A stretch of 64,000 bases of DNA from an uncultured Gemmatimonadales bacterium (GTDB lineage: Bacteria; Gemmatimonadota; Gemmatimonadetes; Gemmatimonadales; Gemmatimonadaceae): NCBI GenBank assembly GCA_963793305.1, contig CAWBZV010000014.1, positions 96,001-160,000 on the forward strand. The letters run 5' to 3'. Both the position numbers and the translations under genes were made by a program. Below are positions 7,992-64,000 of this stretch, piece by piece (within the stretch, counting starts at the first letter, position 1; each line of letters starts with the position of its first letter). Below the pieces are notes generated by a model that had not been told where the DNA came from, ran no database searches, and saw only the letters and a program-made list of their open reading frames with translations.

Positions 7992-9419
7992 TCTCCGGCG
8001 CGATCATCGCTCGCGCATTGGCCGAAGCGGGTTTGCTCGTCTCGGCGTCGCCGGCCATGCCCAGTGAGTTCAGTGGAATCACCGACGACAGTCGTGCCGC
8101 GGAGCCGGGCACGTTGTTCATGGCCGTGCGCGGGAGCACGCGCAATGGCCACGAGTTCTTGGCGGCCGCCGCCAGCGCTGGTGCGACGGCGGCGGTCGTC
8201 GATGATCCGGCCCGATCAACACTGCCCGTGTTCGTCGTCAGCGATACACGAGCGGCGGTCGCCACGGTGGCGTCCGCGGCGTATGACTACCCTGCGCGAG
8301 CGCTCCACGCTGTTGGCGTGACGGGCACCAACGGCAAGAGCACCACGGTGGCGCTCGTGCGGCACCTGCTCGACCAACCGGCAGCCTCTCTCGGCACCAT
8401 AGGCGTTTTCGTGGGCGACACGCCGTTCGGCGAGACCGGCCTCACCACGCCCGGGCCGATTGAGCTGCAGCGCGTGTTGCGTCTCCTGGTCGATCGGGGC
8501 GTGCGGTCGTTGGCGATGGAGGCTTCGTCGCATAGCCTCGATCAGCATCGCATCGATGGCATGCAGTTCGAGGCCGCGGTGTTCACGAACCTGACCCGCG
8601 ATCATCTCGATTATCACGGCACCATGGAAGCCTACTTCGCGGCGAAGGCCCGGCTGATCTCATATCTCACGCCGACTGGCACCGCCGTGGTCAACGCCGA
8701 CGATCCCGTCTGGCAGAATCTTCCCCCGGCTCCCCGCCGTCTCACGTTCTCGGCCACCAATCGGCCCGCGGATCTCAGGGCGACCAACGTGCGGTACACG
8801 CCTCGGGGCAGTGAGTGGCGCCTCAATGACCATGTTGTCCACCTCCCGCTGATCGGTGCGTTCAATATCGAGAACGCGCTGGGAGCGGCCGGTGCGGCGC
8901 AGGCCCTGGGAGTGGAACTGAAGACGGTCGCCCAGCGACTGGAAACCGTTCCCCAGGTGCCGGGCCGGCTCGAGGTCCTGCACGATCACCCGACGGTGCT
9001 GCGCGATTACGCGCACACGCCCGAATGCGATCGAGCGGGCCCTCGAGGCCGTGCGACCGTTTACCCGTGGCCGGCTGATCATTGTCTTTGGAGCCGGAGG
9101 AGATCGGGATCGAGGCAAACGACCGGCAATGGGCTCGGTCAGCGAGCGCCTCGCGGATACCGTGATCATCACCAGCGACAACCCGAGAACCGAAGACCCC
9201 GAGCGCATCCTCGACGAGATCGAGACGGGGATGACGCGGCCGCACGAGCGCATTGAGGACCGGGAGCGCGCGATCGCGCGAGCCATCGCGCTCGCCGGGG
9301 ACGATGATGTCGTGCTGCTCGCCGGCAAAGGACACGAGACGTACCAGGTGCGTGGGACGACGAACTATCCGTTCGACGAGCGGGTGATCGTGCGGACGTT
9401 GCTCAGCTCCGCCGCGTGA
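7988..9419 (+). CDS. murE: MurE ligase; +1 insertion at about 9024
   Basis: GVTGTNGKST, EASSH, TNLTRDHLDYH, DYAHTP; after the shift GDRDRGKR, DNPR, AGKGHE. Confidence 0.93.
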
Positions 9420-10753
9420 CGTTCTGGACGCTCGACCGCGTGGCGCAGGCCCTGGGCACCGGGCCTCGCGGGAGCCAAGCGCTGGCCGCGGTATCCACGG
9501 ACACCCGGACGGCCGGGCCGGACGATCTCCTCGTGGCGCTCGCCGGCCCACGATACGACGCGCATGACTTCCTCGGCGCCGCAATCGAGCGCGGATGCGC
9601 CGCGCTCGTCGTCTCCCGCCTCCCACGCGAGCGGTTCGGCGTGCCGATATATCACGTTCCCGACACCCTGGCCGCCCTCGGGTCGCTGGCTCGCTACCGT
9701 CGCCGGGCTTGGGGCAAGACTGTGATCGCCATCGCCGGGTCCAACGGAAAAACGTCGACCAAGGATCTCGTACGATCGGCCCTCGGATCGGTCCTCGAGG
9801 TTCATGCCACAACCGGTAATCTGAATAACCAGATCGGCGTGCCGCTGACCCTCCTAGGCGTGCCCGACTCGGCGGACATTGCGGTCATCGAAATGGGTAC
9901 GAACTATCCCGGCGAGATCCCGATCCTCCGCTCAATCGTCGAGCCGGACCTGGCCATTGTGACGTCTATTGGTGAGGAGCATCTGGAAGGCTTTCACGAC
10001 CTGGCCGGCGTTCTCGCTGAGGAAGGCTCGGTCTTTGACGGCGTACCCATCGGTATTGTTCCCGCCGCCGAGCCGGAGCTTGTCGCGTTGGCGCGCCGCA
10101 AGGCGCGTCACGTGCTCACGGCCGGACTGGACGAGGGCGACGTGCATGCCGATTCCTGGGATGTGGGCGCTGGCACTATCCGATTCCGTAACGTGGACGT
10201 GACTGTCCCTCTGCGCGGCGCGCACAACCTGCGCAATGCCATGCTAGCACTGGCCGCCGCCGATGCGTGTGGGGTACTGCCCGAGCGAGCGGCAGTCGGC
10301 ATCGCCGCGACCCCGGCGCCGGCAATGCGATCGGCCGTCACGCCGCTCGGCGGGCGCGGAGCAACGTTGATCAACGATGCCTACAACGCGAACCCGGCGT
10401 CGATGCGCGCCGCGCTGGACATGCTGGCGGGTATGGGTGTCGGGCGGCAGCGGGTAGTCGTCCTGGGGACGATGCGCGAGCTCGGCCCGAATTCGCCCGC
10501 TCTCCACGCCGACACCGCTCGGGCGGCTCTCGCTGGACCTTTCGACGTTGTCGCCGGGATCGGGGATCTCGGCGCCGCGCTGCGCGCGGTCGCCCCGGCC
10601 GATGCGCGTGTGGTGACGGCGACTGACGTCGACGATCTCTGGCCATGTTTGCGACCGAAGCTCGCCCATGACGCCATCATTCTGATCAAAGCATCCCGTG
10701 GGGTGCGACTCGAACGTTTGGTTCCCTATCTCACCGACTGGGCGACGACGTAG
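9416..10753 (+). CDS. murF: MurF ligase
   Basis: GSNGKTSTK, NNQIGVP, NDAYNANP, KASRG. Confidence 0.93.
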   Translation: MTFWTLDRVAQALGTGPRGSQALAAVSTDTRTAGPDDLLVALAGPRYDAHDFLGAAIERGCAALVVSRLPRERFGVPIYHVPDTLAALGSLARYRRRAWGKTVIAIAGSNGKTSTKDLVRSALGSVLEVHATTGNLNNQIGVPLTLLGVPDSADIAVIEMGTNYPGEIPILRSIVEPDLAIVTSIGEEHLEGFHDLAGVLAEEGSVFDGVPIGIVPAAEPELVALARRKARHVLTAGLDEGDVHADSWDVGAGTIRFRNVDVTVPLRGAHNLRNAMLALAAADACGVLPERAAVGIAATPAPAMRSAVTPLGGRGATLINDAYNANPASMRAALDMLAGMGVGRQRVVVLGTMRELGPNSPALHADTARAALAGPFDVVAGIGDLGAALRAVAPADARVVTATDVDDLWPCLRPKLAHDAIILIKASRGVRLERLVPYLTDWATT

Positions 10754-11895
10754 TGCTCTACCACTTTCTGGCGCCGCTGTCGCGCACGATCAAGCTGTTC
10801 AATCTGTTCAACTATATCACGTTCCGCGCGGCCGGCGCGTTCGTGACATCGTTGCTCGTCGCGTTCTTGATTGGACCGGCCATTATTGCCAGGCTCCGGG
10901 CCATGTCCGTCAACCAGGTCGTGCGCGAGGGCACGCCGGAGACCCACGCGAAGAAAAAGAACACGCCCACGATGGGTGGTCTCATCATCCTGTGTGCGAC
11001 GCTCGTGCCGACACTCCTGTGGGCGAAGCTCGACAATCGCTACGTCGTGTTGGCGTTGATCGTGATGGCGTGGATGGGCCTGATCGGTTTTCTGGATGAT
11101 TATCTCAAGTTGTTGCAAAAAAGACGGGGAGTAAAAAACGAGGGCCTCGTCGAGAAATACAAACTGGCCGGACAGATCGCGATCGGGCTCGCGCTCGGCA
11201 TCTACCTGTGGAAATACCCGATCTCGACACTGCCCGGGGCGTCGACGACGCTGCCGTTCTTCAAGTACGTGCTCGTCGTTCCCGCCGCCGCGTGGCTGGG
11301 GTGGGTGTATGTTGGGTTCACGACGTTTGTGCTGACCGGGACATCGAACGCCGTGAACTTCACTGATGGGCTCGATGGGTTGGCCGCGGGACTCTGCGCG
11401 ATCGCGGCGCTGACGTTCGCGCTGTTCGCATATGTGATCGGCCGTGTCGATACGAGCGCGTATCTCCAGATCTATTATCTCCGCGGCGCTGGTGAGCTCA
11501 CGGTGTTTTGTACCGCCATCTTTGGGGCGACGATTGGATTCTTGTGGTACAACGCGTATCCGGCCGAGGTGTTCATGGGGGATACGGGATCGCTCGCCTT
11601 GGGCGGGGCGCTGGGGGCGATCGCTATCTTGCTGAAAAGTGAGTTCTTGTTACTGCTCATCGGCGGGGTGTTCGTGGCCGAGAGCGTATCGGTAATCATC
11701 CAACGATCGGTGTTCAAGTATCGCAAGATGCGATTCGGCCTCGAGTACGCGCAGGCGCACCGCGTATTCAAGCGCGCCCCCATCCATCACCACTTCGAGC
11801 TGCTGGGCTGGCCCGAGCCGCAGATCGTCGTGCGATTCTGGATCATCGGCATCCTGTTCGCGACCCTCGCGTTGTCCACGCTCAAGCTGCGGTGA
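10753..11895 (+). CDS. mraY: MraY translocase
   Basis: TPTMGG, NAVNFTDGLDGL, FMGDTGS, APIHHHFE. Confidence 0.95.
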   Translation: MLYHFLAPLSRTIKLFNLFNYITFRAAGAFVTSLLVAFLIGPAIIARLRAMSVNQVVREGTPETHAKKKNTPTMGGLIILCATLVPTLLWAKLDNRYVVLALIVMAWMGLIGFLDDYLKLLQKRRGVKNEGLVEKYKLAGQIAIGLALGIYLWKYPISTLPGASTTLPFFKYVLVVPAAAWLGWVYVGFTTFVLTGTSNAVNFTDGLDGLAAGLCAIAALTFALFAYVIGRVDTSAYLQIYYLRGAGELTVFCTAIFGATIGFLWYNAYPAEVFMGDTGSLALGGALGAIAILLKSEFLLLLIGGVFVAESVSVIIQRSVFKYRKMRFGLEYAQAHRVFKRAPIHHHFELLGWPEPQIVVRFWIIGILFATLALSTLKLR

Positions 11896-13217
11896 CCGGC
11901 GAAGTCGCGGTACTCGGCCTCGGCAAGAGCGGTCGCTCGGCGGCCCTCTTGCTGGCCCGCGAGGGTCGCCAGGTCTACCTGTCGGACGCCGATGCCAATG
12001 CGTCGTGGTCCGCTCCCGATGGGATCGCGGTCGAAGCCGGACGCCATGATCTGGCCCGCATCGGCGCGGCATCACTCGTCGTCACGAGCCCCGGGATTCC
12101 TCCCACGGCGCCACCCTTGGCCGCCGCTCGTGCAGCGGGCGTCCCGGTCATCTCGGAAGTCGAGCTCGCGCTACGGGCCATGCCGGGGTTGCGGTATATC
12201 GCCGTCACCGGGACGAACGGCAAGACGACCACCACGGCGCTCATCGGCCATCTCCTGCGCGGTCTGGGCTACACGGCCATCGACGCGGGCAACATCGGCT
12301 TGCCATTGGCCGAGGTCGCGTTGGAGTCGCCAAAGGTCGATTGGATCACGCTCGAGCTCTCGTCGTTCCAACTGCACGATACGCCATCGGTCGACCCCAC
12401 CGTCGGGGTCCTCACGAATCTGAGTCCCGATCATCTCGATCGGTACGCGACCGTCGAGGACTATTATGCCGATAAGCGGCGGTTGTTCGCCAATGCGCGC
12501 GGAACGTCGCGGCTCATCGTCAATGCCAATGACCCCGCGTCGTTGGGATTGGTGGCGGGCGTGCTGGGGACGCACTATCACTTCACGGTGGCTGGGCATC
12601 CGGCTGACGCATCACTCCGAGCGGATACCCTGACGCTTGGCAACGACGTATTGATCAGCCGTGACGATTTGCATCTCCTCGGCAACCATAATGTCGCCAA
12701 TGCGCTGGCGGCGGTCTTGGCGGTCACGGCAGCCGATCCCGATCACCGCTCGCCGATGGTCCGCGAGCGCCTCGCCGAGGCCCTGCGGACGTTTCATGCA
12801 TTGCCGCATCGCCTCCAGCTCGTTGGCGAATACCTCGGCGTGCAGTGGATCAACGATTCCAAGGCGACGAACGTGAGCTCGGCGCTCGTCGCGCTCGAAA
12901 GCATGACGCGGCCGACGATCCTGCTCGCGGGCGGCGTGCACAAAGGCGAGCCATATACCGCCCTGGCTGCCCCGTTGGCACGCATTGGCAAAGCGGTCCT
13001 TGCCTATGGCGAGGCGGCACCGCTCATCGTAGCGGATCTCGCCGGGAAAGTTCCAGTGGAGCGGCTCGGCAATAACTTCAACGAGGTCATTGCTCGTGCC
13101 CGGGCCCTCGCAACACCTGGCGACGCAATCCTGTTGGCGCCCGCGTGCTCCAGCTTCGACATGTTCCACAACTATGCTGAGCGGGGCGAGACGTTCGCGC
13201 GTTTGGCGCCGACATGA
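11892..13217 (+). CDS. murD: MurD ligase
   Basis: GLGKSG, TGTNGKTTT, ELSSFQL, NDSKATN, PACSSFD. Confidence 0.95.
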   Translation: MTGEVAVLGLGKSGRSAALLLAREGRQVYLSDADANASWSAPDGIAVEAGRHDLARIGAASLVVTSPGIPPTAPPLAAARAAGVPVISEVELALRAMPGLRYIAVTGTNGKTTTTALIGHLLRGLGYTAIDAGNIGLPLAEVALESPKVDWITLELSSFQLHDTPSVDPTVGVLTNLSPDHLDRYATVEDYYADKRRLFANARGTSRLIVNANDPASLGLVAGVLGTHYHFTVAGHPADASLRADTLTLGNDVLISRDDLHLLGNHNVANALAAVLAVTAADPDHRSPMVRERLAEALRTFHALPHRLQLVGEYLGVQWINDSKATNVSSALVALESMTRPTILLAGGVHKGEPYTALAAPLARIGKAVLAYGEAAPLIVADLAGKVPVERLGNNFNEVIARARALATPGDAILLAPACSSFDMFHNYAERGETFARLAPT

Positions 13218-14359
13218 AAGAGCGATTCCGTTGGCGAATCGGCGTCGAGGCCCGCGCGCTCGTCGTGCTGACGGCCGCGATGTTGGCGTTTGGCCTGGCG
13301 GTACTCTATAGCGCCAGCTCGATGTCGGCGATTCAAGAGCACCGGTCGAACGCCTTTTATCTCTTACGGCAGCTTTCGGGCGTCGCCATCGGGGTTATTG
13401 CATTCGCCATCGCGGCGAAGATGGACGCCGAGCGATGGTATAAGTGGGCATGGCCGCTCATGCTCGTCACGCTCGTACTGATGCTGGTAACGATCCTGCC
13501 ATTCACGCGCTCGATCGCACCAGTCATCCACGGTTCGCGCCGTTTCTTGATCGGCTCGTCAATTCAACCGTCCGAGATCGGCCGGTTCGCGGTCGTCATT
13601 TGGTCTGCCATGCTGGTCGTCAAAAAAGGCCCGCAGCTGCACCGGCTCACGAAGGGTTTCCTGCCATTTCTCGTCGTTGTCGGCGCGCTCGACGTATTGG
13701 TGGTATTGGAGCCCGACCTGTCGACGGCGCTCCTGTATACGCTCCTCATGACCGTCGTGCTCTTCGCCGGCGGCGTGCGCATCGGATTTCTGCTCGTGAT
13801 GTTGGTGATCGGCGCGCCGGTGCTGTGGCACGAGGCACAGCATCTGCAATACGTATTCGCGCGAATCGTGTCCTTCGCGAACGCGGGACCGAATGTCACC
13901 GCGATCAATTATCAGCTCCGGCAATCGTTGATCGCGGTGGGATCGGGACGGTTGCTCGGCGTCGGCTTCGGGCACGGGCATCAGCAAGGTGGGTTCGTGC
14001 CATTCCCGTACGACGACTTTATCGGGAGCACCATTGGCGAGGAGTGGGGGTTCGTCGGCATCCTCTTCATCGCGCTCGCGTTTGGCGCGTGGGCCTGGCT
14101 CGGCATTCGGGTGGCGAGAGAGGCGCGCAACCAGTTCCTCCAGCTCGTGGCGATCGGCATCACCTTCTCTGTGACCGTGACGGCGTTTCTGCATCTCGGC
14201 GTCGTGATCGGCCTCCTGCCGACAACCGGCCTGACCTTGCCATTCGTCTCATACGGCCGATCTGATCTCATCCTCTCGTTGTTCCTGACTGGCCTCCTCG
14301 TGAACATCGGGAGCGTGCGCGAGCGGGTGATCGTCAATACGGCGACAGATCCGCCATGA
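13214..14359 (+). CDS. ftsW: FtsW SEDS glycosyltransferase
   Basis: IQPSE, EPDL, GEEWG, GLTLPFVSYG; multi-TM. Confidence 0.92.
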   Translation: MKERFRWRIGVEARALVVLTAAMLAFGLAVLYSASSMSAIQEHRSNAFYLLRQLSGVAIGVIAFAIAAKMDAERWYKWAWPLMLVTLVLMLVTILPFTRSIAPVIHGSRRFLIGSSIQPSEIGRFAVVIWSAMLVVKKGPQLHRLTKGFLPFLVVVGALDVLVVLEPDLSTALLYTLLMTVVLFAGGVRIGFLLVMLVIGAPVLWHEAQHLQYVFARIVSFANAGPNVTAINYQLRQSLIAVGSGRLLGVGFGHGHQQGGFVPFPYDDFIGSTIGEEWGFVGILFIALAFGAWAWLGIRVAREARNQFLQLVAIGITFSVTVTAFLHLGVVIGLLPTTGLTLPFVSYGRSDLILSLFLTGLLVNIGSVRERVIVNTATDPP

Positions 14360-15438
14360 TCGTTTGGTTCGCCGGTGGAGGCACGGGCGGGCACCTGTAT
14401 CCGGGGCTGGCGATCGCGCGCGCACTGACCCGTCTCGCCCCGTCGGTGCAACCGTTCTTCATCGGCGCCCGACGAGGTATCGAGCGCGAAGTGCTCCCGC
14501 GCGAGGGCTTCCCGTTCGAGTTGCTCGATCTGCACCCGTTATATCGGCCACGGATCTGGCTCAACTGGCGCACGTTGCGCGGCGCCGTCGGTGCATGGCG
14601 GCGGCTCTCGGCGTTGGAACGCCCGACGCTCGTTGTTGGCACCGGTGGCTATGCGTCCGCTCTGGCGCTGGCCTTTGCCGAAATGCACCGGATCCCATTC
14701 GTCGAGCAAGTCGCGGACAGTCATCCGGGGTTGACCGCGCGCGCATTCAGCCGTGGCGCGCGCGAAGTCTATCTCGGCTATCCTGAAGCCGAGCCATATC
14801 TGCCGCGCAAGAGTGGGGAGCCGTTTTTCGACACGGGAAACCCGATCGAGCCGCCCCCCAATCCTCGCCCGTCGCGGACCGCCGCACGGGTCGCGTGGGG
14901 CTTTCCGCCCGAAGGCGGTACGGTGCTCCTCGTCTTCGGCGGCAGCCAGGGTGCCCGGGCGCTGAATTCCGTCGTTGATACCTGGCTCAGTCGCGGCATA
15001 CCGGACTCGCTCCATGTGATCTGGGGTACGGGCAAAGCCCATTTCGATGCGCACCGTGCGCGCGCCAGCGCGCGGGTATGCGTGCGGCCGTACTTGTCGC
15101 CAATCGCCGATGCCTATGCGGCGAGTGATGTCGTGCTCGCGCGAGCGGGCGCCATGACGACGGCCGAGTTGTGCGCCTGGGGTCTTCCCATGATCCTCGT
15201 GCCGCTGCCAACGGCGGCCGCTGATCACCAGACCGCCAACGCGCGCGCGCTGGCTGCCGCCGGCGCGGCAGTGCACGTCCCACAGGCCGAGCTGACGCCT
15301 GAGCGGCTGGAGCAGGTTGTTCGGGACGTTGTCCTCAACACCGAGCGACGGAATCTACTCGCGACGGCGGCTCGTGCGCGTGGGCGGCCCGACGCCGCCA
15401 ACCACATCGCGGGACGGATACTTGCCCTGCTAGATTAG
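14356..15438 (+). CDS. murG: MurG glycosyltransferase
   Basis: GGGTGGH, GGSQGA, RAGAMT, DHQTANA. Confidence 0.95.
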   Translation: MIVWFAGGGTGGHLYPGLAIARALTRLAPSVQPFFIGARRGIEREVLPREGFPFELLDLHPLYRPRIWLNWRTLRGAVGAWRRLSALERPTLVVGTGGYASALALAFAEMHRIPFVEQVADSHPGLTARAFSRGAREVYLGYPEAEPYLPRKSGEPFFDTGNPIEPPPNPRPSRTAARVAWGFPPEGGTVLLVFGGSQGARALNSVVDTWLSRGIPDSLHVIWGTGKAHFDAHRARASARVCVRPYLSPIADAYAASDVVLARAGAMTTAELCAWGLPMILVPLPTAAADHQTANARALAAAGAAVHVPQAELTPERLEQVVRDVVLNTERRNLLATAARARGRPDAANHIAGRILALLD

Positions 15439-15445
15439 CGTCGTC

Positions 15446-16792
15446 ATGCCCCTTCTCGACCCGGCGGATAGCCGCCCCATTCACTTCATCGGGATCGCCG
15501 GCGCGGGAATGAGCGCATTGGCCGACTTGTTCGCCCGACGGGGCGCGCGGGTCACGGGATGCGACGCATCCACGGGTGGCCATGATCCAGCGCACCTGCA
15601 GGGTGTTCGTGCCGTTGTCGTATCCTCGGCGATTCGGCACGACCAGCCCGAGATTGTCGCCGCGCATCAGGCCGGACTGCCAGTGATCCGTCGCGCGGAG
15701 GCGCTGGCCGAGGCGGTGGCGGGTGGTACCGTCATCGGCATCGCGGGAACACATGGGAAGACCACGACAACCGTCATGACGACCGAGGCGCTGACCGCTG
15801 CCGGCAAGGCGCCCACTGGCGTTGTCGGCGGGCGCGTCGCCGAGTGGGGAGGCAATCTGCGATTTGGCGGTCTCGATCTGTTCGTCGTCGAGGCCGACGA
15901 GTACGACCGCTCATTCCTCGCGTTGACGCCGACGATCGCTGTCGTGACGAACGTCGAGGCCGATCATCTCGACATCTATCGCGATCTCGACGATATCCGA
16001 TCGGCGTTCGCGACGTTCGTGCGCCCGGCGCGCTGGATCATTCTGTGCGCCGACGATCCCGGCGCCAATACGCTCCCGACGCCAAATACCGCGGAGATTC
16101 TGCGCTACGGCGTGACGTCCCCTGACGCACGTCTCGCTGCGCTCGACGTAACGCTCACGTCCACCGGGTCGACGTTCGCGGTCGCGTATGATGGTGACCG
16201 CCTCGGCGTCGTGGAGCTCCACGTTCCGGGTGTACACAACGTGCGCAACGCGCTCGCGGCCATCGCGTGCGGGATCGCCGAAGGCGTGCCGCTCGATGCG
16301 ATGCGACCGGGACTCGCGGCGTTCCATGGAGTGGAGCGGCGGTTCCAGCGCTTGGGTGAAGCGCGTGGAGTCACGGTGGTCGATGACTATGCGCACCACC
16401 CAACCGAGATCCGCGCCACGCTCGATGCCGCGCGCGCGGCGTTCCCAACCAAACGCATTATCGTCGCGTTTCAGCCGCACCTCTACTCGCGCACGCGAGA
16501 TTTCGCCGCCGATTTTGGGCGCGCGTTGGCGCGTGCGGACGCCGTGTATTTGACCGAGATATACCCCGCGCGCGAGCAGCCGTTGCCCGGAGTCACCTCT
16601 GAGCTCATCGCGAAGGCCGCTGCCGACGCCGGGCGGCCTGTCGCGTGGCGTGGAAACCGGGGAGATCTTGCCGGGGCGCTGGCCGCCGCGGTAAGACCCG
16701 GTGATGTCGTGCTGACGCTCGGCGCGGGCGATATCACGCGGACCGGACCCGAGCTCCTCGCGGCGTTGCGGCCTAACGGGGCTGCGGCGTGA
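15446..16792 (+). CDS. murC: MurC ligase
   Basis: GIAGAGMS, GTHGKTTT, EADEYD, DDYAHHPTEI, FQPHLYSRT. Confidence 0.95.
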   Translation: MPLLDPADSRPIHFIGIAGAGMSALADLFARRGARVTGCDASTGGHDPAHLQGVRAVVVSSAIRHDQPEIVAAHQAGLPVIRRAEALAEAVAGGTVIGIAGTHGKTTTTVMTTEALTAAGKAPTGVVGGRVAEWGGNLRFGGLDLFVVEADEYDRSFLALTPTIAVVTNVEADHLDIYRDLDDIRSAFATFVRPARWIILCADDPGANTLPTPNTAEILRYGVTSPDARLAALDVTLTSTGSTFAVAYDGDRLGVVELHVPGVHNVRNALAAIACGIAEGVPLDAMRPGLAAFHGVERRFQRLGEARGVTVVDDYAHHPTEIRATLDAARAAFPTKRIIVAFQPHLYSRTRDFAADFGRALARADAVYLTEIYPAREQPLPGVTSELIAKAAADAGRPVAWRGNRGDLAGALAAAVRPGDVVLTLGAGDITRTGPELLAALRPNGAAA

Positions 16793-17463
16793 CCCGCACC
16801 CGCCTGGCCCTCCTCGGCGTGCTCGGCATCGTGCTCGTCGCCGCGCCGTGGTGGGGACGCCGCGCGCTGCGCGCGCTCGCGTATTTTCATGTGCGGTCGG
16901 TGCAGGTCGTCGGCGCCCACTATCTGGCACCCCGAGATGTCGTCGCCGCGATGCGAGTCGATACCAATGCGTCCACATGGGACGATCTCAGGCCGTATGC
17001 TTCGCGCGTGAATACGTTGGCATTGGTGCGACACGCGGACGTGGAGCGGGAGCTGCCCGGTACTCTCGTCGTGCACGTGACCGAGACTGCGCCAGTCGCG
17101 ATGGTGCCGGGCGCGGGTGGGCTCCGCGTCTACGATGCGCGGGCCCGGGTGCTGCCGATCGACCCGGCGAGAGCCGATGTCGACGTGCCGGTCATCGATC
17201 GGCCGGACGCCGTCGTCACCCGCTTGCTCGCTGGCGTCGAGGTGATGAGCCCCCGCATGTTCGCGCGGATCAGCTCCGTGAGTCGCTCTGGTGAGCAGAT
17301 CATCGTGCAACTGGATCGAGGCGTGGTCAGGGCGGGAATCGACGTCACGCCCGAGCGCCTCGCGGGAGCGGGGCTCGTGGCCGCGGATCTCGATCGGCGC
17401 GGGCAGCATTACACGGAGCTCGATCTCCGCTATCGCGATCAAATCGTGGCGAGGCTCCAGTAA
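16789..17463 (+). CDS. ftsQ: FtsQ/DivIB cell division protein
   Basis: TM plus POTRA-like region, C-terminal LDLRYRDQIV; precedes ftsA. Confidence 0.85.
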   Translation: MTRTRLALLGVLGIVLVAAPWWGRRALRALAYFHVRSVQVVGAHYLAPRDVVAAMRVDTNASTWDDLRPYASRVNTLALVRHADVERELPGTLVVHVTETAPVAMVPGAGGLRVYDARARVLPIDPARADVDVPVIDRPDAVVTRLLAGVEVMSPRMFARISSVSRSGEQIIVQLDRGVVRAGIDVTPERLAGAGLVAADLDRRGQHYTELDLRYRDQIVARLQ

Positions 17464-18716: not shown

Positions 18717-18724
18717 CTTCTGAT

Positions 18725-18830: not shown

Positions 18831-18847
18831 TTAGCTTGGCACTCGCG

Positions 18848-53305: not shown

Positions 53306-53339
53306 GACTACGTTCCCCAGGCAATGGTGAGCCATCGGC

Positions 53340-53762: not shown

Positions 53763-53768
53763 GCGCGC

Positions 53769-54899
53769 ATGCGCATCGTCGTCGTCAACTGGCAGGATCG
53801 CGAGAATCCGCAAGCCGGCGGAGCGGAGACGCATCTGCATGAGCTCTTTGGGCGTCTCGTCGGATACGGGCACGAGGTGTCACTCGTGTGTGCGGGTTGG
53901 CGCGGCGCGGCGGCGCGCGCGGAGCTCGATGGCATCCAGGTCTATCGGGTCGGGACGCGCCACACCTATCCCCTGCACGCCCGGCGCCACTACGAATCGC
54001 TCTTCCCACCCGGCACCCACGACATCCTCGTCGAGGATCTCAACAAGATCCCGCTGGCAACGCCGCAGTGGAAAGCGCCGCCGGTCGTTGGGCTGGTGCA
54101 CCATCTCTTCGGGCTGACGGCGTTTCGGGAGCTCGCGGCGCCACTGGCGAGTGCGGTCTGGCTCGCTGAGCGGCCGCTTCCGCTCATCTATCGGAATGTG
54201 CCGTTTCAGGCGGTCAGCGAAAGCACCGCCAGTGATCTGGTCGCTCGCGGAATCAAACGCGAGAACGTTACGGTCATCTTTCAGGGGGTCGACACTGGCT
54301 GGTATACCCCATGTGATACCGAGCGGACGACTGAGCCACGGTTCGCATACCTCGGTCGTCTAAAGAGATACAAAGGGGTGCATCTGGTCATTCGGGCCTT
54401 TGCGGAGGTCAGGCAGCGCTACCCAACGGCGACGTTGGATATCGCCGGGGCTGGCGACTACCGGCCTAAGCTGGAGCGACTCACAAGCTCGCTTGACCTC
54501 GGGGAGAGCGTACGGTTTCTTGGCAGAGTGTCCGAGCGGGAGAAGTTGGCGCTCTTGAGGCGGTCGTGGGCGCTGTTGTTTGCGTCGCCGAAGGAGGGGT
54601 GGGGTATAACGAACCTCGAGGCGGCGGCGTGCGGTACGCCGGTGGTGGCCTCGAACTCACCCGGCATCCGGGAGTCCGTCATCGACGGCAAGACCGGCTA
54701 TCTCGTTCCGCATGGCGACATCCACGCGCTGGCCGACGCCCTTGGACGATTCGCGGGTGAGCCAGGGCTCGTACGTATGATGGGCGCCAACGGGCGGAAA
54801 TTTGCCGAGACCTTCACCTGGGATCGAGCCGCGACTGAGACCGAAGCGCACCTCTCTTCCGTTCTTGCGTACAGCAACCAAGCCACACACGGAGGGTAA
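53769..54899 (+). CDS. GT4-family glycosyltransferase
   Basis: NPQAGGAE, GRLKRYKG, EGWGITNLEA (EX7E). Confidence 0.88.
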   Translation: MRIVVVNWQDRENPQAGGAETHLHELFGRLVGYGHEVSLVCAGWRGAAARAELDGIQVYRVGTRHTYPLHARRHYESLFPPGTHDILVEDLNKIPLATPQWKAPPVVGLVHHLFGLTAFRELAAPLASAVWLAERPLPLIYRNVPFQAVSESTASDLVARGIKRENVTVIFQGVDTGWYTPCDTERTTEPRFAYLGRLKRYKGVHLVIRAFAEVRQRYPTATLDIAGAGDYRPKLERLTSSLDLGESVRFLGRVSEREKLALLRRSWALLFASPKEGWGITNLEAAACGTPVVASNSPGIRESVIDGKTGYLVPHGDIHALADALGRFAGEPGLVRMMGANGRKFAETFTWDRAATETEAHLSSVLAYSNQATHGG

Positions 54900-54903
54900 G
54901 CTC

Positions 54904-55236
54904 ATGGACGTCATCTTTCATGCCCACCACGCCGTCATCTCCGATCGAGTTCGTGCCCGAGCGCAGGAAGCAGTCGAGCGCGCGGCCGAGCGACTCAAGC
55001 GGAGCGTCGACGCCGTGGTGCGGTTTGAGGGAGACGGCCGAACGCGGCGCGTGGAGATCGTGCTCCATGCGCCACGGCATCGGAGGCTGGTCGCCGAGGG
55101 TCACGCCCCGTTCTTTGGCGCGGCGCTCGCAAATGCAATCCGGTGCATCGAAGCGCAATTGCGCAGCACCAAACGAACGCCCAAGGCTCGACGAGCCCGG
55201 CCCCCTGCATTGACACTGCGCGAGAGCCGCGCCTAA
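54904..55236 (+). CDS. hpf: HPF/RaiA-family ribosome-associated protein (short form)
   Basis: GGAGG SD; size and VEIVL...LVAEG pattern; upstream of hprK. Confidence 0.7.
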   Translation: MDVIFHAHHAVISDRVRARAQEAVERAAERLKRSVDAVVRFEGDGRTRRVEIVLHAPRHRRLVAEGHAPFFGAALANAIRCIEAQLRSTKRTPKARRARPPALTLRESRA

Positions 55237-55239
55237 CCT
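55210..55239 (+). promoter_or_regulatory. Putative sigma70 promoter, leaderless for hprK
   Basis: TTGACA 55210-55215, 18 nt, TAACCT 55234-55239, 5 nt, GTG 55245. Confidence 0.55.
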
Positions 55240-55244
55240 ATCGA

Positions 55245-56228
55245 GTGCCACGAACCATCACGGTCGGCCACCTCTACGAGCGACTCCGCGACGCGCTGGA
55301 GCTCGAACAGGTGGTCGTCCCTGGTGGTGGCGGCCTGGGACTCGACCGGCCGATCACGTCATCCGAGGTCTCCTCTCCCGGTCTGGTCCTGGCCGGGTAC
55401 GTCGAGCGGTTCGCCGGGGGGCGCCTCTTGGTCTTAGGCGAGACCGAGATCTCGTATCTCAATTCACTCAGCGTTGAACACCGCCTCGCTTCGCTCCGGC
55501 GGTTTTTCGAGTTCCCGATCCCGGCATTGTTTATTACCAAGTCTCAAGGCCTGCCAGCGGGATTGGCTGAAATGGCGGCGGGTGCCGGGGTGCCGGTGTT
55601 TCGGTCCCCACTCAAAACCAACGAATTCTATCGGCGCATGTGGCCGATGCTCGAGGATGAATTCGCCGCATCGACGACGATCCACGGCTCGCTCGCCGAT
55701 GTCTTTGGCGTCGGGCTGTTGTTCATTGGAAAGAGCGGCATCGGCAAATCCGAGTGCGTCCTGGATCTCGTCGAACGAGGCCATAGACTGGTAGCGGATG
55801 ATCTGGTCATGGTGACGCGCCGAGGCCAGGATGTGCTCGTGGGACGGGGCCACGAGCTGCAAAGACATTTCATGGAAGTCCGCGGTATCGGCCTCGTGGA
55901 CGTCCGGGCGATATTTGGCATCCGCTCCGTGCGCCAGCAGAAGCGCATCGAGGTGATCGTCCAGTTGGAAGAATGGAATTCCGAAGCCGTGATCGACCGC
56001 ACCGGGCTGGATGGCGTCACCATGGAGATCCTCAATGTGCCTATCCCAAAGATCACGGTGCCCCTCAATCCGGGCAAAAACATTACGGTGGTCGCGGAGG
56101 TGATCGCGATGAACCATCTCTTGCGGTACTCTGGTGTCGACGCCGCCGAGGCGTTCAACGAGCGCTTGATCGCGCGCATGCGCGATGCCTCGTCCATCCG
56201 TCGCTACCTGCAGGAAGACGATGAGTGA
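55245..56228 (+). CDS. hprK: HPr kinase/phosphorylase
   Basis: GKSGIGKSE, GHRLVADD, MEVRGIG. Confidence 0.95.
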   Translation: MPRTITVGHLYERLRDALELEQVVVPGGGGLGLDRPITSSEVSSPGLVLAGYVERFAGGRLLVLGETEISYLNSLSVEHRLASLRRFFEFPIPALFITKSQGLPAGLAEMAAGAGVPVFRSPLKTNEFYRRMWPMLEDEFAASTTIHGSLADVFGVGLLFIGKSGIGKSECVLDLVERGHRLVADDLVMVTRRGQDVLVGRGHELQRHFMEVRGIGLVDVRAIFGIRSVRQQKRIEVIVQLEEWNSEAVIDRTGLDGVTMEILNVPIPKITVPLNPGKNITVVAEVIAMNHLLRYSGVDAAEAFNERLIARMRDASSIRRYLQEDDE

Positions 56229-56619
56229 CGCGGCCGTCCGCGCCATCGTCGCCGGACACGGCGACTTCGCGACCGGGATGATCTCGGCCGTCGACCAGAT
56301 CACGGGCCGTGGCGGAGTCTTCGCGCCGATGACGAACCGCGACCTCTCCATGGAGGACATCACGAATGCGCTGGAGTCCCTCATCGATCACACTGGCGCC
56401 GCGGTCGTGTTCACGGATCTGCCGGCCGGGAGCGCGACCGTCGCCGCGCGGCGCGTGCAGCGCGCGCACCCCGATCTCGTCGTCGTGACGGCGATCAGTC
56501 TGCCCGTGCTGCTCGACTTCGTGTTCCAGGGCGACCTGGCCGCCGCCGATGCGGCGCGGCACGCCGTCGAGAAGGGGCACGGCGCCATGGCGATCGTGGG
56601 GTTACCCGGTGCCCGTTGA
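56221..56619 (+). CDS. PTS mannose-family EIIA
   Basis: IVAGHG, FTDLPAGS. Confidence 0.85.
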   Translation: MSDAAVRAIVAGHGDFATGMISAVDQITGRGGVFAPMTNRDLSMEDITNALESLIDHTGAAVVFTDLPAGSATVAARRVQRAHPDLVVVTAISLPVLLDFVFQGDLAAADAARHAVEKGHGAMAIVGLPGAR

Positions 56620-57106
56620 TCTCTATCGTATCGACGACCGCCGGATCCACGGACAGGTCGTCGTGGGCTGGGGCCAGCCGCTCGACCTGGGGTTCATCGT
56701 GCTCGTCGATGACGAGATCGCGTCCAGCGATTGGGAGCAAGAGCTCTATCGCATGGGCGTTCCGCCGGACATGGACGTGTTCTTCGAGAGCGTCGACAGC
56801 ATCGCCACGGATTTTGCGCGGTTTGCGCGAGACGCGCGGCACGGCATTTTGCTGACAAGCGACATCGACACGATGCGTCAGCTCGTCGAGCGCATGCCGA
56901 ACGCCATTCGGGCCGTCAACCTCGGCGGCATTCATCATCGGCCGGGACGAAGCCCGAAGCTGCGATACGTCTTTCTCGATGGGGCCGAAGAGGATGCGTT
57001 GCGCGGGCTCGCGTCGCGTGGCGTCGTCGTCAGCGCGCAGGATGTGCCAGCCGCGCGACCCATTCCGCTCGACGAGGTCTTGGCGCTCCATGGGGCCGCC
57101 AAGTGA
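56609..57106 (+). CDS. PTS mannose-family EIIB
   Basis: RIDDRRIHGQV, VNLGG. Confidence 0.88.
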   Translation: MPVDLYRIDDRRIHGQVVVGWGQPLDLGFIVLVDDEIASSDWEQELYRMGVPPDMDVFFESVDSIATDFARFARDARHGILLTSDIDTMRQLVERMPNAIRAVNLGGIHHRPGRSPKLRYVFLDGAEEDALRGLASRGVVVSAQDVPAARPIPLDEVLALHGAAK

Positions 57107-57804
57107 ATTGGTTCAATCTCGTCCCGTTCGTGTTGCTGGGCGCCATCGTTGGGCTCGATGTCGTCAGCTTTCCGCAGGCCATGATTTCGCGCCCCATTGT
57201 CGCGGCCACCGCGAGCGCGGCCCTCGGCGGACATCCGGGGCTCGGGCTCGCCCTCGGTGCGACGCTCGAGCTCATCGCGCTCGAGATGCTGCCATTCGGG
57301 GCGTCCCGCTATCCCGAGTGGGGTTCGGCGGCCGTCGTCGGCGGGGCCATCATTGCCGGCACGCCAGGCCAAACTATCACGCCGACGGTCACCTCATCGG
57401 CCCTCGTGTTGGCCGTGCTGGCCGCTCTCGCCACTGCGTGGGTCGGCGGCTGGACCATGGTTATGCTGCGTCGTCTCAACGCGGTATGGGCGCGACGTGC
57501 CACGGCCATACTCGACACCGGATCGCCACGAACTGTCGATGGGCTGCAGATCAGAGGGTTGTGTGCGGATTTGCTTCGTGGGGCGCTGCTGACGGGGATC
57601 GCATTGGCCGTTCTCAATCCGATAGTAGACGCGGTCATTCACTTGTGGGGCGTGCCGCCTGCGCAGTCGCGAGCCGTTGTGGTGGGAGTCTCGGCGACGG
57701 TGGCCGTGGCGGCGGCTTGGAAGGTGTTTCATACGACCAAGGGCGCGCCTTGGTTCTTTCTCGCCGGATTGGCGGCGGGTGTTGCGTTGGCGTGGGCCCA
57801 ATGA
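57103..57804 (+). CDS. PTS mannose-family EIIC
   Basis: SRPIVA, GATLELIAL...PFGA; multi-TM. Confidence 0.82.
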   Translation: MNWFNLVPFVLLGAIVGLDVVSFPQAMISRPIVAATASAALGGHPGLGLALGATLELIALEMLPFGASRYPEWGSAAVVGGAIIAGTPGQTITPTVTSSALVLAVLAALATAWVGGWTMVMLRRLNAVWARRATAILDTGSPRTVDGLQIRGLCADLLRGALLTGIALAVLNPIVDAVIHLWGVPPAQSRAVVVGVSATVAVAAAWKVFHTTKGAPWFFLAGLAAGVALAWAQ

Positions 57805-58568
57805 CGGAGCCCACGCGAGTTCCACGCAAGACCTGGCTTGCCATGTTTACCCGGCTGCTCGCGGTGCAAGGATCCTGGAACTACGAGCTGCTCATGGGCA
57901 ACGGTATCGCTTTCGCGGCCGAGCCGGGCCTCCGCCTCTTGCCAGAAACGGAGTACCGAGAGGCGTTGGCCCGCCAGGGGCGCTATTTTAACTGCCACCC
58001 CTATCTCGCGTCTGTTGCCGTCGGCTCGCTGGTGCGAGCCGAGTTGGAGCACGTGCCGGGACCGAAGATCGACCGGTTTCGGACCGCGTTGTGTGGGCCG
58101 CTCGGGAGCGTGGGTGATCGATTGATTTGGGCCGGCTGGCTCCCGGCGTGCTCGCTCTTGGCGCTCGTGGTGTTTGGCGCCGGCGCGCCGGCATGGGTCG
58201 TGGTGACGGTATTTCTCGGGCTGTACAATGTCGGTCACTTGAGTCTGAGGGCGTGGGGATTATCGACGGGGCTTTCTTCAGGCATGCATGTCGCGAAAGC
58301 CCTCGCCGGCCCCGTGTTCCGGCGTGGCCCAGATGTGATAGCGAGAGCCGGCGCCTTGCTGGCTGGTATGGCGATTCCGGCGGCGTTGGCGCGAGTGGTG
58401 CGGCATGGACCAGCGCCCGGGTCCGCGGCGTTGTACGTCGATGTGGTGGCCGGCGTGTTAGCCGGCGGTGTGCTCCTGGTGCGTATGCACGGCCGCGTGG
58501 ACGGTTGGCGCATCGCGCTCGTGGTGCTGGCGGCGTTCGTCCTCTACGCGGTGTTACGGCATGGCTGA
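57801..58568 (+). CDS. PTS mannose-family EIID
   Basis: QGSWNYE, YFNCHP, GPLGSVGD. Confidence 0.88.
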   Translation: MTEPTRVPRKTWLAMFTRLLAVQGSWNYELLMGNGIAFAAEPGLRLLPETEYREALARQGRYFNCHPYLASVAVGSLVRAELEHVPGPKIDRFRTALCGPLGSVGDRLIWAGWLPACSLLALVVFGAGAPAWVVVTVFLGLYNVGHLSLRAWGLSTGLSSGMHVAKALAGPVFRRGPDVIARAGALLAGMAIPAALARVVRHGPAPGSAALYVDVVAGVLAGGVLLVRMHGRVDGWRIALVVLAAFVLYAVLRHG

Positions 58569-58827
58569 ACGGAGCGTGAAGATCGTCAACAAGAATGGGC
58601 TCCACGCCCGGCCAGCGGCCGAGATCGTGAAGACCGCCTCGAAGTTCACGAGCGATATCATCATCGTGCGCGATGAGCTCGAGGTCAACGGGAAGAGCAT
58701 CATGGGCGTGATGATGCTCGCGGCCGAGTGCGGCTCGGAGGTGACGCTCCGCGCGACCGGCCCGGACGAGTCGGACGCGGTGGAGGCGATCGCGACACTC
58801 ATCTCCAGCAAGTTCGGAGAGAAATAG
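58561..58827 (+). CDS. ptsH: Phosphocarrier HPr
   Basis: GLHARPA (His15) and GKSIMG (Ser46). Confidence 0.95.
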   Translation: MAERSVKIVNKNGLHARPAAEIVKTASKFTSDIIIVRDELEVNGKSIMGVMMLAAECGSEVTLRATGPDESDAVEAIATLISSKFGEK

Positions 58828-60603
58828 GTGGATCGGACGCTCGCGGGGCTGCCCGCGTCCCCGGGGATCGTCGTCGGGCCCGTGTACCTCTTGCGCTGGG
58901 AGGTGCCCGAGGTCGGTCATCGCATCATTGGCGACGATGCTATCCCCGAGGAGATCGAGCGTCTGCGCTCGGCGTTCGGCCGGGCAAAGGAACGCCTGCG
59001 CCACATTCGCGCGCGCGCGGAGGCACACGCCGGTCCGGACGAGGCGCGTATCTTCGACGCGCAGCTCATGATCCTCGAGGATCCGACGCTGCTCCAGGAG
59101 GTCGAGTCGGTGATTCACCAGAACTACGGGGCGGAAAAAGCCTTCGATCTGGTGATGCTGGAGCACCGCCAACGGTTCGCTCGCCAGACCCATGCGCTCT
59201 TGCGCGAGAAAGTCAGCGATCTGACGGACGTTCACATTCGGGTCCTGACGGCCTTACTGGATCTGCCCGACCACGATCCAGTCGACGTGCCGAAGGGTGC
59301 AAACGCGATTCTGTTGACCCATGATCTGACGCCGAGCCTGACCGTTCAGCTCGACCGCGAGGCTATCGTTGGCATCGCGACCGATGGCGGCACGGGCACT
59401 TCGCACGTAGCGATTCTGGCGCGATCACTCGGCCTTCCAGCCGTACTGGGCCTACGAGACGCGACGACGCGTCTCACCGGCGATGAGCGCGTGGTACTCG
59501 ATGGCTTCGCGGGCGTTCTCGTGGTCAACCCGACCGACGCCGAAGTCGATGCCTATCGCGTGCGGGCGAGAAGGGAAGCCGAGCGTCAGGCCGAGTTGCG
59601 GCATTTTGCGATGGCCGAGCCGATTACGAAAGACGGCGTGCGCATCACCGTCCTGGCCAACGTCGACTTGCCGGAAGAAGCGGAGAGTGCCGCGCAAAGT
59701 GGCGCGGAAGGCGTTGGCCTCATGCGCACCGAGTTTCTGGTGGTGGGACGAGCCACCATGCCTGACGAAGAAGAGCAGTATCGCTCGTACGCGCGGGTCG
59801 TCGAAGCGTTTGCCGGACAGCCGGTGGTGATCAGAACGTTCGATGTCGGCGGCGACAAGCTTCCCGCGGGAACGTACCCGGTCGAACAGAACCCGTTCCT
59901 CGGCTGGCGCGCGATCCGGATGTGTCTCGATGAGTCGGAGCTATTCAAGACGCAACTGCGCGCGCTGCTGAGAGCAGCCATGCACGGCGACGTGCGCATC
60001 ATGTTGCCGCTCGTCGTCACGCTGGATGAAGTCCATCAGGCGCGAACGCTGATCCAGGAGGCGGCCGAGGAGCTCGAAGCCCGGGGGACGGCGTACAGCG
60101 ACAGCGTGCCGATTGGCGTGATGATCGAGACGCCCGCGGCGGCGGTCGCGGTGGACACGTTCGCTCGGGATGTCGCGTTTTTCAGCATCGGCACCAACGA
60201 CCTCGTGCAGTACACGCTTGCCGTGGACCGCGGCAACGCGAACATGGCGTCGCGATTCACGCCATTGCATCCGGCGGTCCTCCGCCTGATCCAGCGCATC
60301 GCCGAGGTCGGCGACAGCAACGGCCTCGAGGTCGGGGTGTGCGGCGAGATGGCGTCAGAGCCGCTGATGGCGTTTGCGCTGATCGGCCTCGGGTTGCGAC
60401 AGCTTTCGGTGGCGCCACGCTCGGTGGCGTTGGTCAAGCGCCTCATTCGCGGCGTCGATGTCGAAACGGCGGCCGCGGCGGCCAAGGAAGCCATGTCCGC
60501 GTCGACCGCCGCGGCGGCCGAGCGCGGGTTGCGGCGGCGCTTGTTGGTGGCACTCGCCGATGACCCGATCCTAGGGGAGAACGGGTTGCCCAGCCCCGCG
60601 TGA
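58828..60603 (+). CDS. ptsI: PTS Enzyme I
   Basis: TSHVAILAR, GLMRTEF, NPFLGWRAIR, GTNDLVQY, CGEMA. Confidence 0.95.
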   Translation: MDRTLAGLPASPGIVVGPVYLLRWEVPEVGHRIIGDDAIPEEIERLRSAFGRAKERLRHIRARAEAHAGPDEARIFDAQLMILEDPTLLQEVESVIHQNYGAEKAFDLVMLEHRQRFARQTHALLREKVSDLTDVHIRVLTALLDLPDHDPVDVPKGANAILLTHDLTPSLTVQLDREAIVGIATDGGTGTSHVAILARSLGLPAVLGLRDATTRLTGDERVVLDGFAGVLVVNPTDAEVDAYRVRARREAERQAELRHFAMAEPITKDGVRITVLANVDLPEEAESAAQSGAEGVGLMRTEFLVVGRATMPDEEEQYRSYARVVEAFAGQPVVIRTFDVGGDKLPAGTYPVEQNPFLGWRAIRMCLDESELFKTQLRALLRAAMHGDVRIMLPLVVTLDEVHQARTLIQEAAEELEARGTAYSDSVPIGVMIETPAAAVAVDTFARDVAFFSIGTNDLVQYTLAVDRGNANMASRFTPLHPAVLRLIQRIAEVGDSNGLEVGVCGEMASEPLMAFALIGLGLRQLSVAPRSVALVKRLIRGVDVETAAAAAKEAMSASTAAAAERGLRRRLLVALADDPILGENGLPSPA

Positions 60604-60664
60604 GCGATAATACTAACACCAGTGAGTCACGCAGTCCGCGGTTAGCCCCCCTCAATATTGCCCT

Positions 60665-63212
<2,548 letters not shown>

Positions 63213-63222
63213 GGGGGCTCGG

Positions 63223-63744
63223 ATGGTCGAGGTGGTGGTCGCCAAACTCGGGCTGGACAGTTCGACCAACAGCCATGTGGTCATCTTGCAGGAGAAGGAT
63301 GGCCACAGGCTGCTGCCCATTTGGATCGGTCAGCCCGAGGCTGACTCGATCGTGATGGAAATGAAGAACGTGAGGCGGGAGCGGCCGCTCACGCATGACC
63401 TCTGCAAGAACCTCATCGTTGGACTCGGCGGCACGCTGCGGCGTGTGCAGATCACGAAGGTACAGAAAAGTACCTACTACGCCGAGCTGCACGTCGCGCG
63501 GCCCGAGGGGCTGGTGCAGATCGACGCGCGGCCGTCCGACAGCATCGCCATCGCGCTCCGGCTCTCCGCGCCCATCTATGCCCAAGAGTCCCTGCTCACG
63601 GCCGTCGTCGAGGAGGAGGGTGAGGACTCCGTCGCGACGGCCGAGTCTCAGGCGCGGCTCGACGAGATGAAATTGACCGCCGAGCAACTCAAGGAGCGGC
63701 TCGAGAACCTGCGGCCAGAGGATCTCGGCAAGTTCAATATCTGA
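63223..63744 (+). CDS. Bifunctional nuclease (DUF151) family protein
   Basis: LPIWIG..EA, RPLTHDL, DARPSDSIAIALR. Confidence 0.9.
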   Translation: MVEVVVAKLGLDSSTNSHVVILQEKDGHRLLPIWIGQPEADSIVMEMKNVRRERPLTHDLCKNLIVGLGGTLRRVQITKVQKSTYYAELHVARPEGLVQIDARPSDSIAIALRLSAPIYAQESLLTAVVEEEGEDSVATAESQARLDEMKLTAEQLKERLENLRPEDLGKFNI

Positions 63745-64000
63745 ACTACGCCCTGCTCGGCCTCGCTTCGCTCGCCCTCGCCGGCGCCGGCGGCGATCAT
63801 GTCGATGGGCGGGTGCTGCGGCGCGTCGGCAAAGGCGTACAGCCGATCGCCGGCACGTGGGTCACGCTGCATTGCGTCGGGTCTGACACGGCCGGTCCGC
63901 TGGATTCGACACGGACCAAGGCCGACGGGCGGTACGCGTTCAACTACAAAAGAACGGGCGATCCGCAGGCCATTCTACTTCGTGTCGTCGACGTTCGATG
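63741..64000 (+). CDS. Partial secreted protein with an Ig-like/carboxypeptidase-regulatory-like domain; start uncertain; probable +1 insertion at about 63973
   Basis: LNYALLGLASLALAG signal-like segment; VTLH..G...GPLDSTRT..DGRYAF. Confidence 0.5.
   Translation, partial: MNYALLGLASLALAGAGGDHVDGRVLRRVGKGVQPIAGTWVTLHCVGSDTAGPLDSTRTKADGRYAFNYKRTGDPQAILLRVVDVR

Follow-up and report, generated by a model that had tools for sequence, protein, structure and literature searches.

Probable nanopore consensus errors at GATG and GACGTC in a Gemmatimonadaceae genome, and two candidate solitary methyltransferases as their predicted source

This report concerns ten single extra bases in a 64,000-nucleotide stretch of the genome of an uncultured member of the Gemmatimonadaceae (the window; G000:C14:96001-160000), by which the reading frames of ftsZ, murE, argS, asnS and other genes are broken in the assembly. 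The extra bases are probably nanopore consensus errors at N6-methyladenine in two words, GATG and GACGTC, and the writers would be a solitary D12 methyltransferase and a solitary beta-class methyltransferase, respectively. We infer the nanopore origin of G000 from the error type; N6-methyladenine, the enzyme-motif pairs and the marked strand are likewise deduced.

G000 (5.72 Mb, 26 contigs, 65% GC, 92% complete) was compared with G001, a genome of the same genus (about 92% identical, about 100 contigs). Close homologues of G000 proteins are assigned to the Gemmatimonadaceae in their source records. The share of G001 used was 1.91 of about 5.4 Mb; high-scoring segment pairs that were shorter than 500 bases or overlapping were removed, and 1.445 Mb was aligned at at least 89% identity. 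In the window, 56,857 of the 64,000 bases were aligned. Isolated one-nucleotide indels were removed when the flanks were gapped or had more than four mismatches. Doubling of an A (A→AA) was scored at 174,709 single-A sites in the first 0.9 Mb. The true divergence of two genomes is expected to be roughly symmetric, and a one-sided excess was therefore taken to suggest errors in one assembly.

Relative to G001, the window has a single extra A or T at positions 9025, 18972, 19201, 19610, 28878, 33673 (six flank mismatches; passing the looser filter only), 35440, 45949, 47262 and 63974. The proteins of G001 shift frame on the window in ftsZ (three times), asnS, the gene at 33670, the kinase gene and argS, and their alignments end at 47260 and 63980. 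When the extra bases were removed, ftsZ was extended from 83 to 384 codons, murE from 422 to 476 and argS from 440 to 542. An earlier note, made from the window alone, had listed ten such contexts, and all were present where it placed them; its view that removal of one base restores the frame was borne out, as all ten bases are absent in G001 and located at frame breaks, and its count of AGATG at seven of the nine GATG sites was confirmed. Ten of the 13 isolated one-nucleotide indels in the window are at the two motifs, the others being at 5300, 5393 and 63217. The indels at 5300 and 5393, a deletion and an insertion located 93 bases apart outside the motifs, form a compensating pair. In a search of sequencing runs, most of positions 18001-28000 of the window was present in two runs, one of which may come from the source sample, and no RNA run was among those listed. 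As for the swaps of G to A in the window (Table 1), most of the GACGTC set and about half of the GATG set are likely to be miscalls, and the remainder true divergence.

Over the 1.445 Mb, 127 of 340 isolated one-nucleotide indels (110 of 220 within long reading frames) are at the two motifs; the indels outside the motifs include true divergence and the indels of G001 itself. The earlier statement that nearly all frameshifts are at the motif thus holds for the window but not for the larger alignment. A→AA insertions (81 clean cases) were found at 36 of 8,862 G[A]TG sites (odds ratio 96), at 38 of 756 G[A]CGTC sites (odds ratio 1,248) and at 7 of 165,091 sites elsewhere, and there were none at GACGCC (0/1,631) or GACGCG (0/1,540), most other GACG contexts likewise being zero. 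The argS word GAACG, which had been taken for a variant of GATG, therefore belongs to a separate motif, GACGTC, and the genome-wide frameshift contexts are enriched, as had been anticipated, but for two motifs, GATG and the palindrome GACGTC, instead of one. The swap of the same G to A, which the earlier note did not contain, is commoner than the insertion. From G001 to G000, it was counted 628 times (296 in reverse) at the first G of GATG and 160 times (14 in reverse) at that of GACGTC; in the same alignment, there was no such asymmetry at GATC (333 vs 337) or anywhere in CATG. The conserved GACGTC sites number about 666: 436 have stayed intact, 176 carry the swap and 54 the insertion, so that about a third are wrong, GACGTG being clean; among the GATG sites, 11,828 are intact, 761 read AATG (about half by true divergence) and 52 are inserted. 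The extrapolated burden of G000 is about 500 insertions or false frameshifts and about 1,900 swaps.

No flanking base within 14 nucleotides is required at GATG. At both motifs, errors occur chiefly after A or C at position -1 and hardly after G or T, with AGATG giving insertions and CGATG giving swaps. The core motif is GATG, and AGATG is a context effect; VGATG (without TGATG) could be an alternative core. Of the motif (A)GATG proposed earlier, the GATG core was retained, and the A marks only an insertion-prone context, since CGATG fails as G→A. Several other motifs were considered and rejected: AGATG or a longer or bipartite motif, by the absence of a required base within 14 nucleotides and the acceptance of any 3' base in the related genome G003; a single shared motif GAYG, because GACG contexts other than GACGTC are clean; CATG, GATC, RGATCY and ATGCAC, which lack asymmetry (this does not prove them unmarked); and TCGA, the signal of which is mostly overlap with GATG and GACGTC. 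Two candidates for a third motif, CTC[G>A]AG (21 vs 2) and, at 29 vs 5, ACCC[G>A]T, did not reach significance among about 19,000 tests. With Markov k-mer statistics alone, GACGTC was detected and GATG was not. As side observations, the asymmetry at ACCC[G>A]T may be a third mark; another one-sided signal, CGC[G>C]A (305 vs 178), may be codon drift; and a minor error form, an extra G before AGATG, occurred in six cases in 1.445 Mb (strict class).

In the proposed mechanism, the G before the predicted methylated A of GATG or GACGTC would be read as A or as GA, giving the G→A swaps and the GA→GAA frameshifts, and in the cell itself the genes would be unbroken. The base at -1 (prone to error when A or C, hardly so when G or T) and a T after the motif would set the failure rate of the caller; as the rate would depend on neighbouring bases, most motif sites would be read correctly. 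Errors of this class have been published: RA/TY was given as the minimal shared error motif of Kit-14 nanopore reads (PMC11610573), G2A errors of R10.4.1 are strand-specific and gone after amplification (PMC11610603; bioRxiv 10.64898/2026.01.14.699587), and only some occurrences of an error motif are affected (PMC12392509). The errors in G000 resemble the R10.4.1 methylation errors (PMC11610573, PMC11610603, bioRxiv 10.64898/2026.01.14.699587) in being G→A before A, confined to motifs and partial; a strand skew, also typical of that class, is strong in five related genomes and weak in G000. They differ in the prominence of the GA→GAA insertion, whereas the available parts of PMC11610573 describe substitutions and do not mention the word 'indel', and in that the motifs were here deduced from assemblies alone.

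The earlier note had also preferred miscalls at a modified motif to lesions, recoding or editing, and the intact genes of the relative, the matching G→A bias and the strand skew in other contiguous assemblies agree with it. Recoding and editing are excluded by the occurrence of the motif in both orientations and by the intact frames in G001. Real mutation is excluded because essential genes are affected and because the skew follows contig orientation: lesions in ftsZ, murE, argS and asnS and a skew of that kind have no biological route. Real mutations are scarcely credible as the cause, and so are uncommon modifications (a phosphorothioate at GpA, or 7-deazaguanine in the position of the G). 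The misread base is indeed a G, and both motifs start with GA, as such a modification might suggest. No member of the PAPS-reductase family (DndC/SspD, PF01507) was found in G000 (92% complete) or G003, other dnd/ssp genes not having been searched for; DpdA (NF041059) gave no match in five of five genomes searched, and G000 has a single ordinary full-length tgt. The dnd/ssp or dpd option raised earlier was thus left unsupported.

For GATG, the predicted writer is the solitary D12 enzyme, which would make G(m6A)TG as a stand-alone relative of the N-terminal domain of M.FokI. Along its entire length, it can be aligned with the first half of FokI-type double methyltransferases of 635-646 amino acids (the N-terminal half) and with a D12 protein fused to FokI nuclease domains (31-35% identity); it matches the 646-position PADLOC model at 2-337 and P0124 at 2-340. 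A PDB sequence search with the protein gave no match. The gene is directly upstream of an extracytoplasmic function (ECF) sigma factor gene in G000, G001, G003, G005 and G014; its own upstream neighbour belongs to no NCBIfam family and differs between genera. At the D12 locus, no nuclease and no second-strand domain or gene were seen.

The distribution of the enzyme was compared with the trace of GATG errors in 201 genomes of the family, of which 50 with at most 30 contigs formed the contiguous subset. A close D12 orthologue (E 1e-60 or better) is present in 65 genomes, and 85 are positive at the wider cut-off of E 1e-20; these tallies, and those given below for the gamma-class enzyme (193) and the beta enzyme (7), take in two unpublished genomes, G012 and G093, on which nothing else in this report depends. 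The counts of a word and of its reverse complement on the contig strand are expected to be about equal, so that strand-biased consensus errors upset the balance; the threshold was z 3.5. CAATGT counts in the 201 genomes were read by eye, and the largest values were recomputed. The threshold was exceeded in eight genomes, all with a close D12 orthologue: G003 (1436 forward, 616 reverse), G110 (1391/776), G132 (839/424), G070 (601/260), G205 (947/618), G054 (464/267), G161 (807/669) and G000 (1164/995). The next skews were all under z 2.8 and include G122 and G211, in which there is no D12 gene. Among the contiguous genomes, the skew was found in 8 of 13 with a close D12 orthologue and in none of 37 without it (Fisher 2e-6), neither in the 8 with a distant D12 paralogue nor in the 29 with neither; by genus, the figures are 6/8 and 0/22 (5e-5). 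Over 600 kb of G003, no 5-mer is more skewed than CAATG (697 vs 350), whatever base follows it on the 3' side, and CGATG is in deficit on that strand. The deficit was repeated with CGATGC in G003, G110, G132, G205 and G070 (34 of the 50 contiguous genomes and six fragmented ones were tested); the skew is strong in these five and weak in G000 (CAATGT z 3.6, CGATGC z 1.5). The alignment of G003 with G000 DNA covers 50 kb only, too little to decide. A distant D12 paralogue alone (30-38% identity) occurs in 20 family genomes, the eight contiguous ones of which have no CAATGT skew; it may have another target.

Two other enzymes were rejected as the GATG writer: the gamma-class enzyme of 1087 amino acids, which is near-universal (193/201), and the beta enzyme (7/201), which was not found in G003 and six other trace-bearing genomes by the query used. 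We also regard as very improbable a generic bias of the basecaller or polisher at these words that needs no modification. Low-level G/A confusion does remain in amplified nanopore reads (bioRxiv 10.64898/2026.01.14.699587), and CRATGTC, CARATG and RACG were recurrent error words in unrelated species (PMC11610573). The two traces are nevertheless separable, G003, G110 and others having that of GATG but not that of GACGTC; none of the 37 contiguous D12-free genomes has the GATG trace; and the errors at a third of the GACGTC sites spare GACGTG.

The D12 enzyme shares its family, D12, with the N-terminal domain of M.FokI; this domain makes GG(m6A)TG, and the N-terminal half of M.FokI recognises GGATG (PMC3985630). 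It differs in being solitary, without a second-strand domain or nuclease, and in that the trace is strongest at CGATG and AGATG and, for swaps, near zero at GGATG. The same four-base non-palindromic word is the target of MhoVII of Mycoplasma hominis (GATG/CATC), a fusion of beta and D12 domains with a nuclease (PMC12898733); in that report, the target is called virtually unknown, with five REBASE assignments, none of them published. Here the D12 gene is single, chromosomal and syntenic, and no partner is needed to explain the trace. Among the Gemmatimonadota, the motifs RGATCY, ATGCAC and CCAGN7TCA are known from the Gemmatirosa methylome (PMC3974934), and no report of GATG or GACGTC methylation was found in the main texts, without supplements, of the open-access literature. 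Comparison may also be made with the orphan enzymes. Dam and CcrM are solitary adenine methyltransferases without a nuclease. The D12 enzyme is like them in the absence of a nuclease, the conserved chromosomal place and the four-base target, which is frequent and shows no avoidance (GATG, 1,141 per 100 kb), and unlike them in that GATG is non-palindromic, so that one enzyme would mark one strand, and in its patchy distribution, with close orthologues in 65 of 201 genomes.

GACGTC most likely belongs to the solitary beta-class enzyme, which would act like M.AatII to make G(m6A)CGTC; this link is correlative and weaker than that of D12 with GATG. The beta enzyme is present in 7 of 201 family genomes and, by the query used, absent from seven of the eight GATG-trace genomes. 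The frequency of AACGTC stands out in G000 alone, at 995 per Mb against 723-792 in five other members of the genus; in the other seven genomes with the GATG trace, all without the beta gene, it is not clearly increased. No nuclease-like open reading frame (ORF) was seen at the beta loci of G000, G001, G004 and G005, by reading and not by a family scan. In other phyla, 80 loci of the beta enzyme were collected, and 16 genomes picked for long contigs were tested, eight of which have MFD titles; the MFD catalogue was built from nanopore reads (PMC12313526). Among these eight carriers, CAACGTC is skewed forward in G221 (z 5.5) and G219 (z 4.3), weakly in G222 (z 2.1), and not in the other five. 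CGACGTC is deficient on the same strand of these three genomes (z -2.4, -1.1 and -3.4), the control CAACGTG being near level. M.AatII makes G(m6A)CGTC (PMC3287169); thus, the hexamer is the same, and the A that is doubled here is the A methylated by M.AatII. In the candidate, an amino-methyltransferase, DPPY precedes FxGxG, which is the beta order; in contrast to the AatII system, no restriction gene was seen beside it. Its best PADLOC model has 331 positions, which would match the length of M.AatII, to judge from plasmid sizes. In Klebsiella and Acidiphilium, homologues of the beta enzyme (53-64% identity) are encoded on small mobilizable plasmids (L160, L161); they have no specificity names.

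Several points weigh against the reading given above. Both the artefact and the methylation are read from assembled sequence, and the comparison genome G001 is another species and not the same DNA. In three of the eight genomes positive with CAATGT (G000, G054 and G161), the result did not recur with CGATGC, and 5 of the 13 contiguous D12 carriers are without a clear skew. The D12 association would be overstated if few of the 37 skew-free genomes were unpolished nanopore assemblies, and related genomes are not independent. As for GACGTC, AACGTC is mildly skewed (z 3.3) in G003 despite the absence of the beta enzyme there, with CGACGTC level (2336/2336); z 3.5 was passed by only two of the eight MFD beta carriers, the three followed up having been picked afterwards; and two non-MFD carriers are skewed oppositely (z -2.9 and -3.1). 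The likeness to M.AatII is one of class, motif order and predicted target. Finally, it is the D12 domain of MhoVII that marks C(m6A)TC, the beta domain marking G(m6A)TG (PMC12898733), so that the strand marked here is a prediction.

The same artefact and the same D12 enzyme could accordingly go with a mark on the opposite strand as C(m6A)TC, in which case the caller would misread the C that lies two bases downstream (or double the T); this we consider unlikely, while giving it some weight. Besides the MhoVII domain, a C→T error two bases after 6mA in C. lari (PMC12392509) speaks for it. On the other side, the position of the error at the G before the A and the -1 preference are the same as at GACGTC, of which the known mark is that A, and it is with the N-terminal half of FokI, that for GGATG, and not with the C-terminal half, that the protein aligns. 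We therefore keep to G(m6A)TG as the predicted mark.

The earlier note had placed the modifying enzyme elsewhere in the genome, which is consistent with the candidate genes found in G000 outside the window. The methyltransferase search that it had suggested was run, and five DNA methyltransferase genes were found by family searches: the beta and D12 genes, a gamma-class gene of the Eco57I family, pglX of BREX and a DruM2-like C5 gene (Table 1). That a modification artefact has other writers, with GACGTC from the C5 enzyme or PglX, or GATG from an enzyme co-occurring with D12, is in our view quite improbable. The DruM2-like C5 enzyme occurs, as does the GACGTC trace, only in G000 (one of five genomes of the genus), and BREX is in the same island; but the error is at G-A and not at C, other GRCGYC words are spared, and carriers of the beta enzyme in other phyla have the GACGTC trace. 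To our knowledge, BREX motifs are non-palindromic, which counts against PglX as the writer of GACGTC. The D12 and beta enzymes remain the preferred writers.

Other features of G000 were noted. The solitary gamma-class enzyme has CTCGAG, with its weak G→A signal, as a candidate target. In the BREX operon, the assembly breaks up three genes (brxC, pglX, brxL), and each junction region contains a CATTC or GAATG word; these breaks are likely to be the same artefact and not phase variation. In the adjoining block, Vsr is followed, in order, by two ATPases (the first of sigma54 type, the second BrxC/D-like), a HerA-like protein, an ORF of 471 amino acids without known function, and proteins of the HNH and the McrB-like AAA type; none of the known system names was attached to the four-gene ATPase/HerA block. 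The terminal part of contig C2 (G000:C2:907000-923192; L094) differs in gene style and has many short broken ORFs; it is possibly foreign DNA or binning contamination.

Table 1. Sites in the window (positions of the window) and loci elsewhere in G000 (genome:contig:positions)
Feature	Location	Strand	Description
murE site	9023..9027	+	GAATG, CGATG plus A; likely consensus miscall; base absent in G001; murE by NCBIfam
ftsZ site 1	18970..18974	-	AGAATG, AGATG plus A; base absent in G001; frame switch
ftsZ site 2	19199..19203	-	AGAATG; base absent in G001; frame switch
ftsZ site 3	19608..19612	-	AGAATG; base absent in G001; frame switch
asnS site	28876..28880	-	AGAATG; base absent in G001 and in G003; NCBIfam
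Site in the gene at 33215-34364	33670..33674	-	GGAATG; no NCBIfam family; 'beta-barrel' is the label of the earlier note only
Site near the 3' end of a response-regulator/histidine-kinase gene	35437..35441	-	AGAATG; NCBIfam
argS site	45947..45953	+	GAACGTC, GACGTC plus A; second motif class; NCBIfam
Site at the end of a pfkB-family kinase gene	47260..47264	+	AGAATG; NCBIfam
Site in the last ORF	63971..63975	-	AGAATG; base absent in G001
42 swap positions	1423..63873		GATG (31) or GACGTC (11) in G001; A for the first G in the window
Solitary D12 (alpha-class) methyltransferase	G000:C4:116398-117480		Single ORF of 361 amino acids; PF02086, the only PF02086 gene in G000; predicted GATG writer
Solitary beta-class N6/N4 amino-methyltransferase	G000:C2:48215-49066		PF01555; DPPY at residue 23, FMGSG near 238; predicted GACGTC writer
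Gamma-class (Eco57I-family) methyltransferase-like protein (L093)	G000:C4:75608-78700		1,030-1,090 amino acids (1087 in G000)
Complete type-1 BREX operon (L095)	G000:C3:725368-738414		brxA, B, C, pglX, pglZ, brxL
Block adjoining BREX (L096)	G000:C3:740307-751011		DruM2-like C5 methyltransferase and Vsr, then ATPase/HerA block and further ORFs

Taken as a whole, this is an ordinary artefact with a modest, testable by-product. The artefact class had been published and GACGTC methylation was known; the new part is the predicted lineage of solitary GATG enzymes. G000 is a species-representative genome, and its pseudogenes, its broken-up defence genes and its differences in amino acids at these words are not to be relied on; the G→A swap is carried by at least seven other representatives of the family. 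The combination of forward and reverse word counts with gene presence yielded pairs of enzyme and motif that can be tested, in uncultured bacteria and without the use of raw signal, and the plasmid homologues are easy material for fixing the specificity of the beta family from existing methylomes. A GATG/CATC target was first proven in 2026, in a two-domain restriction system (PMC12898733). We propose tentatively, as a serious possibility that falls somewhat short of the balance of probability, that a third of the Gemmatimonadaceae have a solitary, hitherto undescribed FokI-N-like methyltransferase, its gene fixed upstream of one for an ECF sigma factor, and that this enzyme marks one strand of GATG at about 65,000 sites per genome without a nuclease. 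If so, the epigenetic mark would be permanent and confined to one strand, and it could already be read from the strand skew in public assemblies; the vertically kept solitary enzyme would be a new lineage of orphan methyltransferases in a phylum with very few methylomes.

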